This document shows, in pieces, positions 7,004 to 49,396 of a stretch of DNA of 64,000 bases. The stretch's first letter is position 1, and each line of letters begins with the position of its first letter. The stretch spans positions 1-64,000 of IMG/VR virus record IMGVR_UViG_3300047323_000138. One strand, 5' to 3'. Source of the stretch: a virus. The position numbers and the translations under genes were made by a program. A model generated the notes under the pieces. It was not told where the DNA came from. It worked only from the letters and a program-made list of their open reading frames with translations, and did not search any database.

Positions 7004-7374
7004 TTCAACGGGTCAAGGGAAATAGGCGCTGTAATTTCTCCAGTAACAACTCTTACACTGAACACTAGAGAATATTTACGATTTACAAAAGTAGAATTAA
7101 AGGTTACAATTTCTTTAACTCCTTGCTCTTTAAGGATTTCGGTTTGGAAAATCAAATCAGCCGATGCTTTAGAAGTTTGCTTCTTGCCCAGCAGTCTTTG
7201 GAACCATGGCACACCATAAGTAGTGTCCAAAAACCATTCTTCACGAAACGTAAGTAAGCGAATCTTTAATCTTTGCCCGACAGTCTCAGTAAGTGGTTGA
7301 GTTGTATCTTCTTTCAGCAATGGCCCATTGTGCCAGATTATATCCCAAGATGTGGGATCAAGTTTGAAATCTAT
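7000..7374 (-). CDS. Baseplate wedge/sheath-initiator protein (gp25/gp46-like); probable ATA start at 7374
   Basis: QRLKIRLLTFREEWFLDTTYGVPW motif; GGAGGT RBS 5 nt before in-frame ATA GAT TTC AAA CTT GAT. Confidence 0.75.
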   Translation of the reverse strand: MDFKLDPTSWDIIWHNGPLLKEDTTQPLTETVGQRLKIRLLTFREEWFLDTTYGVPWFQRLLGKKQTSKASADLIFQTEILKEQGVKEIVTFNSTFVNRKYSLVFSVRVVTGEITAPISLDPLN

Positions 7375-29055: not shown

Positions 29056-29460
29056 TTATTCGTCTTCATCAGGTTCAACGAACACCAACGACAAACGAGG
29101 TTTCATCTCGGACTTAATCTGTTCCGGGGTTTGTTCTTCCTCTTCAGGATCACGCTTCCCTTCAGCACGGGCTTTGAAGTTTGTAATCTCATCGCTGCTA
29201 GCTGCTTTTTCAACGCTAACAATCGAGTTGATCACCCACTTTGCACTTGCAACGGATTCAGAGTTAACAGTTTCGTTGTTAAGACTCTTATCAATCAAAG
29301 CTAGAGCAATATCTTCTCGTGTACGAAGCTTATCAGCCAACTCACGAAGTTTACTCTTTTTGATACGAACCTTACTATTTCCTTTCAAGTTTTGATTAGA
29401 GCGTTCCGCCCCGAATCGTGTACTTGGGCTAGGGTTTGGATTTGTAATCTTCTTGGTCAT
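29056..29460 (-). CDS. Putative terminase small subunit
   Basis: NPNPSPSTRF N-terminal motif seen in TerS-like proteins; 134 aa; near terL. Confidence 0.5.
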   Translation of the reverse strand: MTKKITNPNPSPSTRFGAERSNQNLKGNSKVRIKKSKLRELADKLRTREDIALALIDKSLNNETVNSESVASAKWVINSIVSVEKAASSDEITNFKARAEGKRDPEEEEQTPEQIKSEMKPRLSLVFVEPDEDE

Positions 29461-30149
29461 ACTAGTTCCTTATACTTCTGATGGAATATTTTACGGGCTT
29501 GGATATCTTTAATACCAAGCTCTCTTTGAATTTGGATTATTTTATAACCTTTCTCAGCCAACTCACGTCCAAGTCTGTATCCTTTGCGAGTTAGAAATCC
29601 AAAGTGAGTTATCTTATCCAAATCTCTCCAATCAAAAGGTAGTACATCTGTATGGACCGAGTAGTTGTCACCGTTAATTACTTTCTCAACAGCCCAGCGA
29701 CCACAATCAAAGTATTTACTCAGTGCTTTCACATCTAGACGTTCTTCTCTAAATTCAGTTCGAATAAAGTAAACATCATCTTCCGTGAATAAAGCAGTTG
29801 CATTATTTTCACCTTGTTGACCAAACAACCACCTATCACGAGTGCCGTGCTTTACAGAATCAGCTTGATTCTCTTTGTGAGTGCCGGTTGCAAGATGCAG
29901 AGGGTTGTTGCACAGGCTGTTACCACACAAGTGGCGGACAACTAGTTCGTCTGGAACTTCACCTACGAACAACGTATAGAAAAGTCGATGTGTATGCCAA
30001 TTTTTATTGTCGTGTTTTTGTTGACCATAACCATCACCTTGCTTGAAGATGCTTTTACGCCACAACCAACAGCCTTGATGATTCTCAATAACATTTTCCA
30101 TCAAATGAATCTTTAATTCTTCAATACTTCTTGAGTTTGGACCGGCCAT
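29457..30149 (-). CDS. Free-standing HNH homing endonuclease (Zn-finger HNH plus HTH)
   Basis: GCWLW, HRLFY, VRHLCGNSLCNNPLHLATGTHKENQAD. Confidence 0.9.
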   Translation of the reverse strand: MAGPNSRSIEELKIHLMENVIENHQGCWLWRKSIFKQGDGYGQQKHDNKNWHTHRLFYTLFVGEVPDELVVRHLCGNSLCNNPLHLATGTHKENQADSVKHGTRDRWLFGQQGENNATALFTEDDVYFIRTEFREERLDVKALSKYFDCGRWAVEKVINGDNYSVHTDVLPFDWRDLDKITHFGFLTRKGYRLGRELAEKGYKIIQIQRELGIKDIQARKIFHQKYKELV

Positions 30150-30338
30150 TTTAAAACCCTTTTAGTCAAGTCACCGAATGTCGCAACGGGGACAATGTAA
30201 CAAACCCACAAAAGGAGACTTGCTGAAAAGGTCTTACCGTTACGTTGTTTTTAAAGGTAGTTGCGCTACCTGATACACAATATCATACACTTAAAACTCA
30301 GGGCACATTGCGTGCCCGTTGTCTTATTCAACCACAAA

Positions 30339-30413
30339 TTACTTTCTATTCGAACGTGGTCCATCAAACCTAGTATCAGGTGATGGGTTCGGATTTGTAA
30401 TTTTCTTAGCCAT
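30339..30413 (-). pseudogene. 24-aa remnant duplicating the N-terminus of 29056..29460
   Basis: MAKKITNPNPSPDTRFDGPRSNRK-TAA versus MTKKITNPNPSPSTRFGAERSNQN (17/24 identical). Confidence 0.8.
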
Positions 30414-30442
30414 TTTAGTACCTTACATTAAAGCAGCTTGAA

Positions 30443-32950
30443 TTATGAAACATAAAGGTCCCCCAAAGTGCTTGTAAAAAAGTTCCAAGTAGCATTAGGG
30501 TTTGTTGATCCAATAGGTGTAGCCTTCAATTGTGAAGAGGCGTCAATAGACCATGTGAACGATGGGAATGTTCCACCAGCACCAGTTAGAAGCCCAACAG
30601 CACTGACAGTTACCAATTGAGGAGCAAGAGACGTGGCTCCCTTAGCTACCTGAAGGATGTAATGTGCTGTCTCAGAAGCATTTGCATCGACTTGTTTAAC
30701 TGTAATGAACAATACACCGGAAAAGTTGGTTGCTGTACCATCTTGTGAAACACAAGTACCAACCACGTTTCCGGTGGTTGTCAGGTTCTTGGAGATTGTC
30801 TGTGATGCAGTGTTGATCCTTTTAGATGAATAGTCCCTACGTGCTGTGCTGTTCTCGTCACGATTACCCACACCAGTGATAAAATCATAGGAAGTTCCCA
30901 GCGGGACGTTAACGGTGTTATATCTTGCTCTTGCTCCTTTGGAACCCTCAGAGTCAGTGGAGATAGATATCCCAGATGCTCCAGCAACGCCTGAGTGTAG
31001 ATAACAGCCCTCAACAATAGCCTTACCTTTGTTTACCCTAATACCAGACCCATTGAATTGGTATGCTGTTACGTCTTTTACAACAACATCGGGAAGAAGC
31101 TCAAGACCTCCGGTGGGGGAGATGTCACCGGTGACATCTGCCACGTTGTTCAGGAATGCACTAGTAATCATGTAGGCATTAGCTTTACTACCTACGGCAG
31201 AGCAGTTCTCAATGCTTGCATTTTGAGCACCGTATACCGAGAACGAATGTGATCCGGAGGTGGGGTTCCTCTCTATAATATCAACACCGCGCATGACAAC
31301 ATGCTCGTGGTAGCCGCCAGAGGCCGCCGCGATAATAGCCACACCTGTTGCGGAGCCTGCTGCTGGAACATCACCTACACTGAGGGCAGACGGAAGAACT
31401 TCAATATTACTGGCGATACCACACTTGTACAAACGATGAGTACCTGTGAAAGCACCAATAGTTTTGTAAGTACCTGTGATAGCATCTTCCTTGGTTTCAG
31501 CTACTTTAATAGTGTTAGCGTCAACTACAATAGCGAAATAGTAATTGGCCCGTCCAAAACCAGTAATCGCTGTGTTGTTCTGGCGGGAGTAAATTAAAGG
31601 GTAACCTGTAGTCAATCCGTGCGCTGTCAGGGTGAGAGCATTTGCGGAAGATGTGGTAAAATCGTATTTACCTAAAGTGTATGGCTCTATACCAATAACT
31701 TCACGCATAGTGTCGGTAGAGAACACCTGCATACTACCATGATCTACGTTCCCATATTGAAGGCCGAAGTTACCGCCTTTCTCACAGATAAGTTTTCCAT
31801 AGCAGTTAGTGGACGGTCTGTTATATGGATAAAAAGCACTAACGCCTACGGCTCCACCCAAAGCAGTGCCATCTGAAATTACTTTCAAATCTAGGAATAG
31901 ACCATCTGTATTATCTAGCAATATACCATGTTCAGCATGAGTACCAATACGAGCTACAGTGAATCCCTTCAAGGATATGTTCTTAAGTCTTGGTCCAGTG
32001 AATGGGCTTGCAAAGAACAGCTTACCAGAAGATGGAAACTTACAATAAATTGCAGGAGAATAGCTATCATCCCCCAAGATATCCATTGAAGACCACACAT
32101 GTATTGTATCAGTGATCATGTACTTCTTGTTTCTTTTAAGCTTGATTGGTAAGCCCGAAGCTTCTGCTGCAAGGAAGGCTGGCGTACAATCCGTGCCAAT
32201 CTGGGTATCTGGGTCATAGTCACCAACTGCACCAAACAATTCAATAGGCACACGAGAGTCACCAAGTATGGAGTAGATAGTGGCTGGTGTGCCATCAAGG
32301 TCAATACCGATCAAGGCCGCGCCTTTTAAATGATCGGAGTTGTTGGATAGATCTGCGATATCAGCTTTAGTAGAAAGAAGCCCTTCAGTATACACAGCAC
32401 TAGCTTCAGCGGCATTAGCCGAATCCAAAGAATCCTGTGCAGATGTGGAAGCTTCAGCAGCCTTAGTGGTGGATACACCCGCAGAAGTACTAGCAGATGA
32501 TGCACTATTAGCCGAGTTAGTTGCAGAGGTTTGACTGGCTGTAGCACTGTTTGCAGATTGAGTAGCTGACGTACTCGCATTCGTAGCACTTACAGCAGCA
32601 GCATTCTTACTAGCCAATGCAGCAGCAGCGTCAGCTGCCACTTGAGCTACAAGAGGGTCTGAATGAGCTGTTTGACCAATCATCAACAGAGCATTAATAG
32701 TTGTCTCTGTTGTATCATCTGTAATTTCAATATTACCAATGCTTGTAAATGCATGGTAATCATTTACGAATACACTTACTTTATACCAGCCATTAGGGAC
32801 ATCAATTTCATATGCTCCATCCACATTTGTCTTAAAATCTTTAGTGACAAACTGGAGAACATCTGGAGATGTGTTGTTAGCTGTAATCCGTACAAGTGAA
32901 TTTGAATATGGAACACCTGTAGGGGTTAGAAGAATACCTGAAAGAATCAT
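30443..32950 (-). CDS. Tailspike/fibre with beta-helix (pectate-lyase-like) depolymerase domain
   Basis: lambda-Stf-like N-terminal domain, Ala/Ser-rich stalk, FGAVGD..DCTPAF beta-helix start. Confidence 0.8.
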   Translation of the reverse strand: MILSGILLTPTGVPYSNSLVRITANNTSPDVLQFVTKDFKTNVDGAYEIDVPNGWYKVSVFVNDYHAFTSIGNIEITDDTTETTINALLMIGQTAHSDPLVAQVAADAAAALASKNAAAVSATNASTSATQSANSATASQTSATNSANSASSASTSAGVSTTKAAEASTSAQDSLDSANAAEASAVYTEGLLSTKADIADLSNNSDHLKGAALIGIDLDGTPATIYSILGDSRVPIELFGAVGDYDPDTQIGTDCTPAFLAAEASGLPIKLKRNKKYMITDTIHVWSSMDILGDDSYSPAIYCKFPSSGKLFFASPFTGPRLKNISLKGFTVARIGTHAEHGILLDNTDGLFLDLKVISDGTALGGAVGVSAFYPYNRPSTNCYGKLICEKGGNFGLQYGNVDHGSMQVFSTDTMREVIGIEPYTLGKYDFTTSSANALTLTAHGLTTGYPLIYSRQNNTAITGFGRANYYFAIVVDANTIKVAETKEDAITGTYKTIGAFTGTHRLYKCGIASNIEVLPSALSVGDVPAAGSATGVAIIAAASGGYHEHVVMRGVDIIERNPTSGSHSFSVYGAQNASIENCSAVGSKANAYMITSAFLNNVADVTGDISPTGGLELLPDVVVKDVTAYQFNGSGIRVNKGKAIVEGCYLHSGVAGASGISISTDSEGSKGARARYNTVNVPLGTSYDFITGVGNRDENSTARRDYSSKRINTASQTISKNLTTTGNVVGTCVSQDGTATNFSGVLFITVKQVDANASETAHYILQVAKGATSLAPQLVTVSAVGLLTGAGGTFPSFTWSIDASSQLKATPIGSTNPNATWNFFTSTLGDLYVS

Positions 32951-32983
32951 ATTGTCCCTACTGGAATAATTATTGTTTTAGAA

Positions 32984-33277
32984 TTCTTAAGCGAACTTAC
33001 AGGCAATGCCTTGCAATATTCATAATGAAGAAGAACGCTTAAGAAATGACCCTGTACTAAGCCTATACCGTAAGGAGAGGTACGTTACACGCTATCAAGG
33101 TCAGAAGACTAATTCACAGGAGAGGGAATGAATAGTCTTAATGCTGTCTGAGGAAGAGGAGAGAAAGACAGCTTTTGAAGATAATGCTTTATGTAGAATT
33201 TAAGTTCTTATCGCATTATCGGTGAAACTGGAATTAGTGCTCTGCTCACCCTCCCAACCGACATTCACTTTTGGAGG
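32984..33277 (-). ncRNA. Array of seven abutting hairpins, three with CUCUCCU loops
   Basis: Stems at 32984-33045, 33047-33103, 33105-33139, 33143-33172, 33180-33220, 33221-33250, 33250-33277; G-U pairs favour minus strand. Confidence 0.7.
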
Positions 33278-33279
33278 CT

Positions 33280-33326
33280 ACGCGACCTAATAAGGTTTCG
33301 ACTTATCACAAAGTCTCATCAGGCGT
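33280..33326 (-). ncRNA. Type I hammerhead ribozyme
   Basis: acgc CUGAUGA gacuu-ugugau-aaguc GAAA ccu-uauu-agg UC gcgu: complete core, three stems, GUC cleavage triplet. Confidence 0.92.
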
Positions 33327-33335
33327 GTTAAATAA

Positions 33336-33450
33336 GTGCGAATGCTGGATACCTACTTGCAGAGCGGTGGTATCGTACGCTCGTAAATTAATGCTGGTGT
33401 TGTTTATCTCGTCTTTATCACGAGGTGGCAGAATCCAGCAACTGCGCATT
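33336..33450 (-). ncRNA. Multi-branch structured RNA domain 5' of the hammerhead
   Basis: ugcuggau/auccagca closing stem enclosing cucgu/acgag and gagcg/cgcuc hairpins. Confidence 0.6.
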
Positions 33451-33452
33451 CT

Positions 33453-33713
33453 TTAACAAGTGATCTGAACAGGACTTTGAAAGTCTGTCAACTTCCACTG
33501 TTTGAAGTAGTCTGAAGGATACACCCGAGTAGGTATGTCACCAACCCCTACGAATACTTCTTTGTTACGATCAGGTGTACGCACTGGTGTGACCTTATCA
33601 AACACAAGCTTCAAATGATCTTTAATCATCAACCATTGGTTTTCAGAGATGGTGTCTGTGTCAGATAGTTCTACGAAGCCTTGAAGCCAGTATGTGAAGC
33701 TTTCGGAATTCAT
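33453..33713 (-). CDS. Conserved phage hypothetical protein
   Basis: F.YWLQGFVEL...QW.MIKDHL.LVF.KVTP motif. Confidence 0.7.
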   Translation of the reverse strand: MNSESFTYWLQGFVELSDTDTISENQWLMIKDHLKLVFDKVTPVRTPDRNKEVFVGVGDIPTRVYPSDYFKQWKLTDFQSPVQITC

Positions 33714-36154: not shown

Positions 36155-36436
36155 ATGAATGTGCATTTTGAAGTCTGGACAACTGAAATTACACTGAACA
36201 AAGAGATGACCTTCTATAATCATTTGTGGTGGGATATGAAATCCAATCGATACGGTATCACACATTTTATTGAAAAATACGATGACGTTTGTGAGCACAC
36301 CGCTTCGTATGAATTCTTCAGGAATGGTGAGATGTTGTGTTCAGGTGAAGGTGATCCAATTCCTCAAGATAAAATTGGTACAGGTGGGGTTAGTGTTATG
36401 GTGCAGATTGATTATGCGGAGTACGTGTTCAAATGA
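36155..36436 (+). CDS. Hypothetical protein
   Basis: Strong RBS; coupled to next ORF. Confidence 0.7.
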   Translation: MNVHFEVWTTEITLNKEMTFYNHLWWDMKSNRYGITHFIEKYDDVCEHTASYEFFRNGEMLCSGEGDPIPQDKIGTGGVSVMVQIDYAEYVFK

Positions 36437-46643: not shown

Positions 46644-49396
46644 ATGACACAAGAACAATATTACCTTCTAGAACGACTACGTACAAACCTCCTAGACGCT
46701 GCATCTGAGCTAGAACTTCTAGGCAAACTGCCAAGGTTTACACAGAATATTGATTGGATGTTGGATGAACTTGAAGAGTATATTAAATTGCAGAAGGAGG
46801 TTGATAAATGAAAGAGAAATCAGACGGTGAGATTTATGAAGATGTTAGCCGTAAAGCTAATCCAGAGCTACATGCACAAATAGATGCTTGGATACAAAGT
46901 CTTCATGAAGGGCAACAACAGCTCATCAATGAAGATGCACAATTGATTGAAGATAATTATTGGGAGTTAATATTGAAATGAGTAATGTAAACTTTAAACC
47001 GATGGATGATAAGCAACGAGAGCAGGTGCGGCTCAAAAGGGCTGCTGACCAAGCTTATGCTAAAGAGAACTTGATTACAGATTTCAAAGACGAGCAGTTC
47101 TGGCGAGAGAATGCCTCCAAAGTGGCGCTACGCCTCCCCGGTTGGTGGATTCCTAGTAGCGAAACAAAATACATTCGACGTGCATGTAAAGCTTTAGGTG
47201 TAGATATTAATTTATTTGTGGAAAGCACAGGCTTTTCTAACTTAAATCAGCTCGTAAAGGCTAATTCTAAGTGGTCGGCTGTGGGTATGGTTGGGTTGTG
47301 TGTGGAATTTGCCATCGAAACTGGAAAGTTGGCGTAGTTTTTACCCTGCCAATCAACGAAAAACTAAAATTCATCTCCGTACACAGGGGTATACTAAAAT
47401 GACAATTCTTGCTATATATTTAATCGGTGTAATCTTCACATTCTATTATGAGACAGAGGATATCTTCCTTGGATCGCTCCCTACATCTATTCAAGGGACA
47501 ATTATATTCTCTTTATGTTGGCCCTTTAGCATAATCTTCGGAGCTGCTATCATGTGGAAAGAGATTATTAAGAAACGTGGAGAGAAGAAATGACTGCTAA
47601 TCGCACACTTGCTGAACAACGTGGATTATCTGAGTCCCAAATCCAAGAGATTGATCGTCTGCACGAACATCTTGACAAAACAATAAACTATTTCATTGAA
47701 CAAGGCTGGACACAGGCACGAGAAGATGAAATTCATGATATCGAATACCTCCTACAACAAGCTTGGGGATTTCCTAAAGACTGTGGATATCATCGTTATG
47801 CACACCAATATGCTTTTGTCTGTCAGTGGTTTGGTCGGACATTCAAGTGTGTAGAAACTGGGAATCAAATTACGTTAGGGAAGGACATCTACGAACGTCA
47901 GTATATTCCTTTCGGTAATTGTGCAATTGACTTGGGTGTCTTGAATGGCTACTCTCGTCGTATTGGAAATATGGAGGAAATTAAGAAATGACCCAACAAT
48001 ATTCACCCGAGAAACAATTGATCAAAGACTTCATCCGCTACATTTCTGATAATCATAAGTGCTGTGTGGTGAGTTTTCCAGATGAGTTTGCTGCTGACAG
48101 CTATTTGAACTACAAATTTGTCAATACGTGTGAATTGCTGGATGAATTTATTAGGGAGAGAAAGACATGAGTTGGGTTCAAGTAGATGAAAAGACTGCTG
48201 AGTGGTTGTTACGACAACGTAATGACGACAACATCCTATACTCTTCGAACTCTTTGCACTGCTGGGATGAGATATTCACAGCAGGAGGTTGTAGATTTAA
48301 GGTGGAAGGTTCGTTCTACTCAGATGAAGTATCAGTCTATAAGGAAGAACAACTATGAACCAAACAATTGAAGAAAGATTCCAATCCATAGAAGACCAAC
48401 TCAAAGAGCTTCGCAAGGAATTGGAGAGTGACCTTGCGAAATATAGGGATAGTAGTTATTTAATTAAGAGGGAGAAATCATGAACAAAACAGAACTCATT
48501 GGAGTGGCAATAGCTATAACACTTATGCCTTATATTATTGGGGTGTGGTTAGTTTACAACATCAGGGGTGGGAAATGAATCAGAAAGCTATTGAAACTTA
48601 TGCGGTACATCTCTATAGAACACGAAAGCCTTGGTCTGATCCGTATGCATATTACATTGAGTACACTGGTAACTATTATGGAGAAGACTCCGATGGAACA
48701 AGGATCTACAATTGGCAAGAATACGAACAAGAGTCTAGCGATGCTGTGGATTATTGGTCAGGAGAAAGTAAATGAAAGGTGAGCCACCAAAACCTCCACT
48801 TATGCGTGTAGGTGCTAACGGCAATCCATGCCCTCTATGTGGTAGTGGAATGAAGCCTAATTGGCTGTGGCTAAAATCTAAGGGATGTTATCAGCCCGAG
48901 TGTGAGAATTATTGGAGGAACAGATGACAGACACATACGAACGTTGTTCCTGTGGTGCTAGAGATAGGGCTAAGTGTAGTAAAGAGAGTGAACATGGTGG
49001 GAAGCTGTGTTTGAAGACAGAAGACAGTCTGTTTAAGAACTTTCGAGAAACACTTAATGGTGGCTTCTGTGCTGATATTGATTACGAGTCAGATGCTTGG
49101 CAGAAGGTTGTTGATGATTGGTCTGAGTTTAAAAGTCAGTGCGTGCCTATTCCTAAAGAGTTGTTTGAACGTATGGGTGTGATTAAAAAGAAAGCTGAAG
49201 AGAATAGGAAGAAGGACTTAGACAATGAAACCACTAATCATTAAAACACCAGAAGGACTTTACGTCTGTGAAATACCAATAGAGAATGAACCTGAAGACA
49301 ATGCAACAGATGCGGAATGGTGGATATGGGCTGCAACTGGTGTTGGCAGTAGTCCTGTAGAGGCTTATAATAATTGGGTGAAGGATTGGGAGGATA
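46644..49396 (+). other. Run of small hypothetical ORFs (e.g. 46978-47337, 47590-47991, 48912-49244)
   Basis: Coupled ORFs with RBSs; no recognisable domains. Confidence 0.6.

Follow-up and report, generated by a model that had tools for sequence, protein, structure and literature searches.

The phage genome analyzed in this study is an IMG/VR record (IMGVR_UViG_3300047323_000138) of 87,351 bp, which possesses direct terminal repeats and is rated 100% complete. The window described here is the stretch of 64,000 nucleotides that corresponds to the first 64 kb of this record. The GC content of the phage genome is 41%, and no tRNA gene was found in the whole 87-kb genome. The large terminase shows 44% identity or less to those of cultured phages, of which ~95-kb Pseudomonas myoviruses are the nearest, and the phage DNA occurs in metagenomes from rhizosphere, soil and root. 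At positions 1-35460, nearly all long ORFs are encoded on the minus strand. The RNA locus is a 502-nt intergenic stretch on this strand (32951-33452). The features of the locus are as follows, in the direction of the minus strand.

33453-33713, minus strand: upstream gene of 86 amino acids (PHROG 28500), on the same strand as the RNA module.
33236-33383, minus strand: conserved element of ~148 nt that contains a hammerhead and is closed by a 7-bp long-range helix; a module separate from the CU-loop RNA.
33221-33228, minus strand: single-stranded 5′ tail GUUUCACC, invariant in 17 of 17 family members; start of the CU-loop module.
33180-33220, minus strand: hairpin H1, with a covarying stem (11 distinct versions); its internal and apical part is A-rich and conserved (AAGA ... 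AAUUCUA).
33143-33172, minus strand: hairpin H2, with a 7-bp stem and a 16-nt all-pyrimidine loop UUCUCUCCUCUUCCUC (33150-33165); compensatory changes in 5 of 7 pairs of helix 1.
33105-33139, minus strand: hairpin H3, with a conserved base AAGA/UCUU and the loop UCCCUCUCCU (33118-33127); the UCUCC core is present in 17 of 17 H3 loops.
33047-33103, minus strand: hairpin H4, with the apex cgua-CCUCUCCU-uacg (loop 33073-33080); compensatory changes in 10 of 12 pairs of helix 4.
32984-33045, minus strand: domain H5, in which a long stem (UUCUUAAGCG/CGCUUAAGAA; 16 distinct versions) encloses two small hairpins; 3′ boundary of the module.
30443-32950, minus strand: downstream tail-fibre gene, on the same strand as the module.

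The module at 32984-33228 (minus strand) is a discrete unit of 245 nt, in which the 5′ tail GUUUCACC is followed by five abutting hairpins with linkers of 7, 3, 1 and 1 nt. In the window, H2, H3 and H4 have apical loops that are 100% pyrimidine, and all three contain UCUCC; H4 is longer in the window than in relatives. The minimum free energy (MFE) of the 245-nt module was −67.4 kcal/mol with z = −5.65, and 0 of 200 shuffles folded as well. When both strands of the whole genome were scanned for pyrimidine loops with a closing stem of 5 bp or more, 23 scattered, weak and single candidates were obtained, and no second cluster of three such loops within ~100 nt was found elsewhere in the 87-kb genome. 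The original prediction had described the three hairpins with their pyrimidine loops, and this description matches the sequence exactly. It had also placed seven hairpins directly 3′ of a ribozyme cleavage site. Of these, the conserved module accounts for five and the hammerhead element for a sixth, and the seventh (~33229-33245) is an unsupported hairpin that is weak in the MFE fold; moreover, the module begins 55 nt past the cut.

Related loci were gathered via relatives of the upstream 86-aa protein, by a DNA pattern derived from the conserved linkers, and by inspection. We obtained 17 distinct members from IMG/VR, metagenome and MAG contigs, together with a truncated copy (L256) and a diverged version (L014). 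When folded individually, each of the 17 members gave the same five domains, conserved in order and size, and exactly one copy is present in each of 6 complete genomes of 84-90 kb. The stems exist in 11-17 different sequences per hairpin. The H2-H4 loops are 79-100% pyrimidine across members: UCUCC is found in 33 of 34 H3 and H4 loops and CUCC in 16 of 17 H2 loops, and the linker between H1 and H2 is UUUCCUC(C) in most members. When 472 kb of related loci were searched with a covariance model of H2-H4, every member was retrieved without any additional match; window positions 33058-33179, which are themselves in the seed alignment, scored 42.7 bits (E = 4e-6). In the covariance-model alignment, 86.3% of cells were paired as compared with 69.1% in shuffles, and compensatory changes were observed in 23 of 34 pairs. 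The covariation score was 0.50, as compared with 0.21 in shuffles and ~0.09 with slid partners, and none of 500 shuffles reached the observed values. The original prediction depended on conservation of the loops in homologues and survives in this respect: the CU loops are kept and the stems covary. Together, the fold, the covariation and the retention of the loops make it nearly certain that the minus strand encodes a genuine, conserved structured RNA, which has been selected for both its fold and its loop sequence.

In wider searches, the loose pattern GTTTCACC..AAATTCTA was insufficiently specific and returned noise. A scan of GTDB genomes gave one true match (L343, JAKFCP010000003.1), which is a 3.6-kb contig binned into a Pedobacter MAG. 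We considered Pedobacter (Bacteroidota) as the host and dropped it, because the phage clearly uses Shine-Dalgarno (SD) sites and short contigs are often mis-binned. The assignment of this contig is probably a binning artefact; the GC contents are similar.

The strand of the RNA is indicated by several observations. Among 1177 predicted pairs, 105 are G-U pairs, which would turn into A-C mismatches on the plus strand. The z value of the plus-strand fold is −1.79 as compared with −5.65 for the minus strand, and the minus-strand MFE was lower than that of the reverse complement in 10 of 10 members tested. The flanking genes, the hammerhead and, in relatives, the abutting tRNAs all lie on the same strand as the module. 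The earlier suggestion that G-U wobbles favour the minus strand thus agrees with both the G-U count and the folding z-scores. The same note had raised a plus-strand transcript as an alternative, namely a sponge for CsrA/RsmA, and the complementary loops AGGAGAGG and CAGGAGAGGGAA do contain GGA. However, the fold strength computed in both directions disfavours this reading. On the transcribed strand, GGA loop motifs of the CsrB/RsmZ type were not found, and the loops of the minus strand are CU-only. Because the G-U pairs, the folding and the strand of the flanking features all point in the same direction, we regard a CsrA sponge as extremely unlikely.

The borders of the module were examined in Logan contigs. 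Four sequencing runs contain contigs of relatives whose match to the window is confined to the interval from 32980-32984 to 33229 and gives way to unlike sequence beyond it; five such contigs begin to match at 32980-32984. In one DNA contig, window positions 32964-33237 are replaced by 435 other letters, as in the two-tRNA arrangement of the L005 type. These sharp match ends and the differing flanks show that the module is a discrete unit between variable flanks. On the 3′ side, most relatives carry an orthologue of window gene 29056-29460 directly after the module and not a tail-fibre gene; the window gene shares 48% identity with that of L012. In the window, the module is separated from gene 29056-29460 by two inserted genes, that of the tail fibre and one for an HNH endonuclease (29457-30149), within 29056-32950 on the minus strand. 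PHROG naming gave no family for gene 29056-29460 or for the gene 3′ of the module in relatives, and tblastn with the tail fibre against cultured phages gave no match. In two relatives (L016 3216-3360, and L242), ~150 nt with tRNA-like arms (AGUUCAGAGGUAGAAC ...) lie 3′ of the module before the next gene; ARAGORN and Rfam call no tRNA there.

The 5′ side of the module differs among members. In 8 of 17 members, the 3′ end of a tRNA lies 0-9 nt before GUUUCACC, and the encoded CCA often abuts it directly. Therefore, an abutting tRNA is a frequent but not a defining feature of the family. A CDS stop lies upstream in 2 members and other sequence in the remaining members. In the window, a tRNA directly upstream is absent and the hammerhead element holds this slot. 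Among the 17 members, the hammerhead element is present only in the window and in the L005 lineage and is absent from 15; in L005, two tRNAs lie between the hammerhead and the CU-loop module. The original prediction had described the system as ribozyme-released. Since the module of relatives follows a tRNA-CCA, a CDS or another RNA, this description fits the genome of the window and not the family. Two further features were observed in the 5′ flanks. In the close relative L256, directly upstream of the CU-loop RNA (2160-2252), the 5′ flank and the last ~35 nt of the hammerhead element are kept and the catalytic core is gone, so that this is a natural deletion variant. In L012 (2850-3055) and L194 (~7005-7130, upstream of tRNA-Thr), a conserved noncoding stretch of ~200 nt, CUGAAGUGUCCC ... 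GUCCGUGACGGUAAAGGG, precedes a tRNA and has no Rfam match.

The hammerhead core is of type I topology, with CUGAUGA at 33316-33322, GAAA at 33296-33299 and GUC, and the predicted cut lies between 33284 and 33283. The match to Rfam Hammerhead_3 is weak (22.7 bits, E = 0.043) and does not reach the gathering score of 48.5; the topology of the element is a circular permutation relative to this model. A pattern scan found the element in six IMG/VR loci and in Klebsiella phage 05F01, and the phages that carry it include unrelated ones. In an alignment of these seven sequences, the CUGAUGA ... GAAA core and A15.1-U16.1 are invariant and position 17 is C, A or U (H). Compensatory changes are present in stems II and III, in the 3′ hairpin and in the 7-bp long-range closing helix; 93.7% of cells pair, and the covariation score is 0.37 as compared with 0.13 in shuffles. 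In other loci, the element lies after or before tRNAs, before an HTH gene or is followed by a terminator. This HTH gene is one that we take, from its translation, to be of small-terminase type. The two contigs with the element upstream of the HTH gene also contain DUF2815 RNA (RF03084; L003 9988-10047 and L008 5374-5433).

Several structural details of the element were also noted. In the window (33236-33383, minus strand), L001 (4012-4152), L003, L004, L005, L007 and L008, the 7-bp closing helix is followed by an invariant A, and an invariant GAUACC/GGUAUC pairing lies 5′ of the closing helix. A pseudoknot also seems to be present, formed between the 3′-hairpin loop and the strand that precedes stem I, although support for this pairing in the MAFFT alignment is only 61%. 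Six of the seven sequences can alternatively form a 5′ hairpin (GAGCG/CGCUC) that is in competition with the closing helix. The element resembles the hammerheads of phages and bacteria (Rfam clan CL00010; PMC3088659) in its complete core, three covarying stems and H at position 17. In contrast to these, it is sub-threshold in Rfam and embedded in a pseudoknotted fold of ~140 nt with a 7-bp closing helix. When the 502-nt intergenic region was searched by blastn against 50,697 cultured-phage records, only the hammerhead part was matched, in Klebsiella phage 05F01. The segment L001 4056-4151 corresponds to 95673-95768 of this phage (LC483177.1), where the element lies directly after a tRNA array. 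A hypothetical protein of 31 codons (gene_188, opposite strand) has been annotated over the element, probably in error.

With respect to transcription, neither promoter-like nor terminator-like sites were found on the minus strand within 32951-33452. The sequence 3′ of H5 is A/U-mixed, and no terminator-like site was found on the minus strand at 32700-33452. An intrinsic terminator or U-tail is typical of Hfq-dependent sRNAs; the U-tailed intrinsic terminator of an Hfq-dependent trans-acting sRNA of the enterobacterial type is absent here. The module was found on short contigs from one metatranscriptome and one probable RNA run, although such contigs show neither the ends nor the level of an RNA. 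Because the RNA-library contigs X22 and X23 cover the module alone and continue into unlike flanks, they derive from relatives. These contigs are consistent with transcription of the module but are not proof of it. The module, which occupies the position of the tRNA genes of relatives, would be cotranscribed with the small genes upstream of it. In relatives, 3′ processing of the tRNA would set the 5′ end at GUUUCACC. In the window, self-cleavage by the hammerhead would generate a 5′-OH end 55 nt upstream of the module, and these 55 nt of the hammerhead element would stay 5′ of it. The position of the hammerhead, which is that of the tRNA in relatives, suggests the importance of having a processed 5′ end upstream of the module. 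We can fairly infer that an upstream RNA-processing element is favoured, and that the hammerhead here substitutes for tRNA processing.

We then consider the possible partners of the loops. The phage uses SD sites: GGAG occurs at −18 to −4 in 31% of first-ATG starts as compared with 3% of random positions, with a peak at −12 to −9. AGGAGA is the commonest extension of AGGAG (31 of 61 sites). SD use was the same inside and outside the structural module of the genome; thus, no gene class obviously escapes a general anti-SD effect. Loop:SD duplexes were computed at −8.3 to −14.0 kcal/mol, with the constraints of the loops ignored. At AGGAGA and AGGAGAG sites these energies are similar to or better than those of a 16S tail of the E. 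coli type. When the RNA was compared with its own genome, complementary stretches of 9-14 nt were as numerous as expected by chance and no target was outstanding; among those related to the loops, the best are found at 48155 (13 nt) and 36140 (10 nt).

The original prediction held that a hammerhead-released RNA silences the phage's own early genes whose ribosome-binding site is AGGAGAG. It had correctly placed AGGAGAG before the ATGs at 36155, 42304 and 53962 (5, 6 and 7 nt ahead, respectively). H3 is complementary to the 36155 site over 10 nt; the duplexes there are −11.6 to −14.0 kcal/mol, and the value for the 16S tail is −7.4. However, no enrichment of AGGAGAG was found: AG follows AGGAG in only 4 of 37 sites. 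In addition, 10-mer matches occur at the chance rate. Nor are the three genes conserved as partners. The 36155 gene is without IMG/VR relatives, the 53962 gene is missing from 5 complete relatives, and the orthologues of the 42304 gene carry AGGAGAA, AGGAGAU or AAGGAC although the RNAs of those phages keep CUCUCCU. Furthermore, 15 of 17 members are without the hammerhead. We therefore consider this version very doubtful. The gene at 36155-36436 (plus strand) is the first gene of the plus-strand block and has the best AGGAGAG site; its lack of IMG/VR relatives was seen by both pattern and tblastn searches.

Pyrimidine loops that pair with SD regions are known from bacteria. In S. aureus RNAIII (hairpins 7, 13 and 14), RsaE/RoxS and Listeria LhrC, UCCC- or CU-rich loops pair with SD regions. 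The loops of these Firmicutes sRNAs are similar to those of the phage RNA, whereas sequence and architecture are unrelated and the sRNAs are bacterial, with known targets. The closest design is that of the cuckoo/alpha-r14 RNAs of Alphaproteobacteria (CcsR1-4 and NfeR1), in which 2-4 adjacent hairpins with variable stems carry the anti-SD word CCUCCUCCC in every loop (PMC4615179). The phage RNA shares with them the adjacent hairpins, the freely varying stems and one common pyrimidine loop word, features that imply a multivalent seed. However, the word differs: it is UCUCC or CUCUCCU in the phage RNA (window loops UUCUCUCCUCUUCCUC, UCCCUCUCCU and CCUCUCCU). The cuckoo RNAs are encoded by bacterial chromosomal genes and the phage RNA by genomes of virulent-type phages; in addition, the latter possesses the GUUUCACC tail, H1 and the three-way H5, and no terminator. 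Rfam ar14 gave no match at the gathering score over the window, nor at E up to 10 over 32700-33700. Thus, the phage RNA is an analogue, and not a homologue, of cuckoo/alpha-r14.

Virulent phages carry tRNAs and a few orphan small RNAs, such as the T4 band C/D RNAs and the PAK_P3 sRNAs; the former are small RNAs from the tRNA region of a virulent phage. Phage PAK_P3, a myovirus of ~88 kb, produces two abundant noncoding RNAs of ~100 nt (sRNA1 and sRNA2) in its tRNA region, the function of which is unexplained (PMC4933390). Like the RNA described here, they lie beside phage tRNA genes; unlike it, they are ~100 nt long and no pyrimidine-loop array has been reported for them (PMC4933390). Rfam at the gathering score, over the window and 13 related loci, gave only tRNAs and DUF2815 RNA; at E up to 10 over 32700-33700, it gave only the weak hammerhead match. 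The CU-loop module showed no blastn similarity to any of the 50,697 cultured-phage records. The view that this architecture was undescribed in phages therefore holds for the literature searched, Rfam families and cultured phages. The RNA would work like a known kind, the multi-hairpin sRNA with anti-SD loops, and forms a new, phage-borne and structurally distinct family.

For the function of the module, we tentatively propose a multivalent anti-SD riboregulator, the loops of which pair with SD sequences and repress translation; we put this at somewhat below an even chance. In this mechanism, the H2-H4 loops and, in most relatives, the H1-H2 linker would present single-stranded UCUCC or CCUCC. 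They would pair with the GGAG(A) SD sequences of mRNAs in competition with the 16S tail, and the RNA would act as a multivalent translational repressor, like cuckoo/alpha-r14, RsaE or the loops of RNAIII. The use of SD sites by the phage, the frequency of AGGAGA, the duplex energies and the cuckoo-like design count in favour. Turnover of the stems around a retained loop word also points to sequence-specific recognition. Counted against the proposal are the core UCUCC, which differs from the canonical anti-SD CCUCC, the chance-level complementarity, the AGGAGAG sites, which are neither enriched nor carried by genes conserved in relatives, the uniform SD use, the missing terminator and the fixed position of the module upstream of the same packaging-region gene, which would suit a cis role equally well. 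The lack of a terminator and of identifiable targets, together with the fixed position before the orthologue of 29056-29460, keeps two other explanations alive.

In one of them, the RNA binds a protein: its pyrimidine tracts, held on a scaffold, titrate, trap or recruit Rho, S1 or cold-shock proteins. Primary sites of Rho (YC dinucleotides) and S1 bind pyrimidine-rich single strands, and the RNA exposes three to five all-pyrimidine tracts, held by a scaffold that is rigid and conserved and whose linkers are short and fixed. The search for a specific mRNA target, which found none, would also suit a protein ligand. The C/G ratio of 2.4-3.8 in the 5′ half exceeds the genome mean of 1.22; however, it lies below the 99th percentile of the genome (4.0). 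A rut-type site is C-rich, G-poor and largely unstructured over ~80 nt, and classical rut sites are unstructured, whereas this RNA is strongly structured. Rho and S1 require only pyrimidine richness, yet UCUCC is kept almost without exception in the H3 and H4 loops. Because a specific word and not mere pyrimidine richness is conserved, pairing is favoured over generic pyrimidine binders, and we judge protein binding to be unlikely. The other explanation is a cis element that heads the packaging and structural operon and would control whether transcription of the early region, with its small genes and tRNAs, reads through into the late genes. It could act as a Rho-dependent insulator, as a put- or EAR-like RNA for processive antitermination, or as a leader for stabilisation or processing. 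Wherever the flank is long enough, the module, including that of the diverged L014, lies on the same strand upstream of the 29056-29460 orthologue or of the inserted tail-fibre gene. The absence of promoter-like and terminator-like sites on the minus strand of the intergenic stretch and the nearly uniform orientation of the long ORFs up to 35460 also fit such a role. However, synteny among related phages is expected regardless. The distance from H5 to the start codon and the sequence between them vary, extra RNA-like sequence is inserted in some members, and the module is exchanged as a discrete, sharp-bordered unit between phages with differing flanks. A cis role thus seems to us improbable, to about the same degree as protein binding.

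A broader form of the anti-SD proposal concerns the biology of these phages. A clade of virulent soil phages may make a multivalent anti-SD RNA from a tRNA/ribozyme processing cluster, and a hammerhead or tRNA processing, as interchangeable generators of the 5′ end, would release it. In competition with the 16S tail for GGAG(A) sites, the RNA would reprogram translation initiation for host shut-off or an early-to-late switch. We consider this picture possible but rather doubtful as a whole. The RNA combines strong comparative support with clear rival explanations and with a hypothesis, that the loops act against GGAG(A) sites, which is both simple and testable. The window adds to the family a hammerhead in place of the tRNA, and a negative outcome for the AGGAGAG partners. 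There is also a gain for annotation, because such stretches are now left blank or called hypothetical proteins, as is the hammerhead of phage 05F01 under its 31-codon ORF. To our knowledge, virulent phages have not been reported to possess a conserved family of riboregulators that is structurally defined and has a readable seed. If the proposal is true, the RNA would be the first conserved class of structured riboregulators of this kind in lytic phages.
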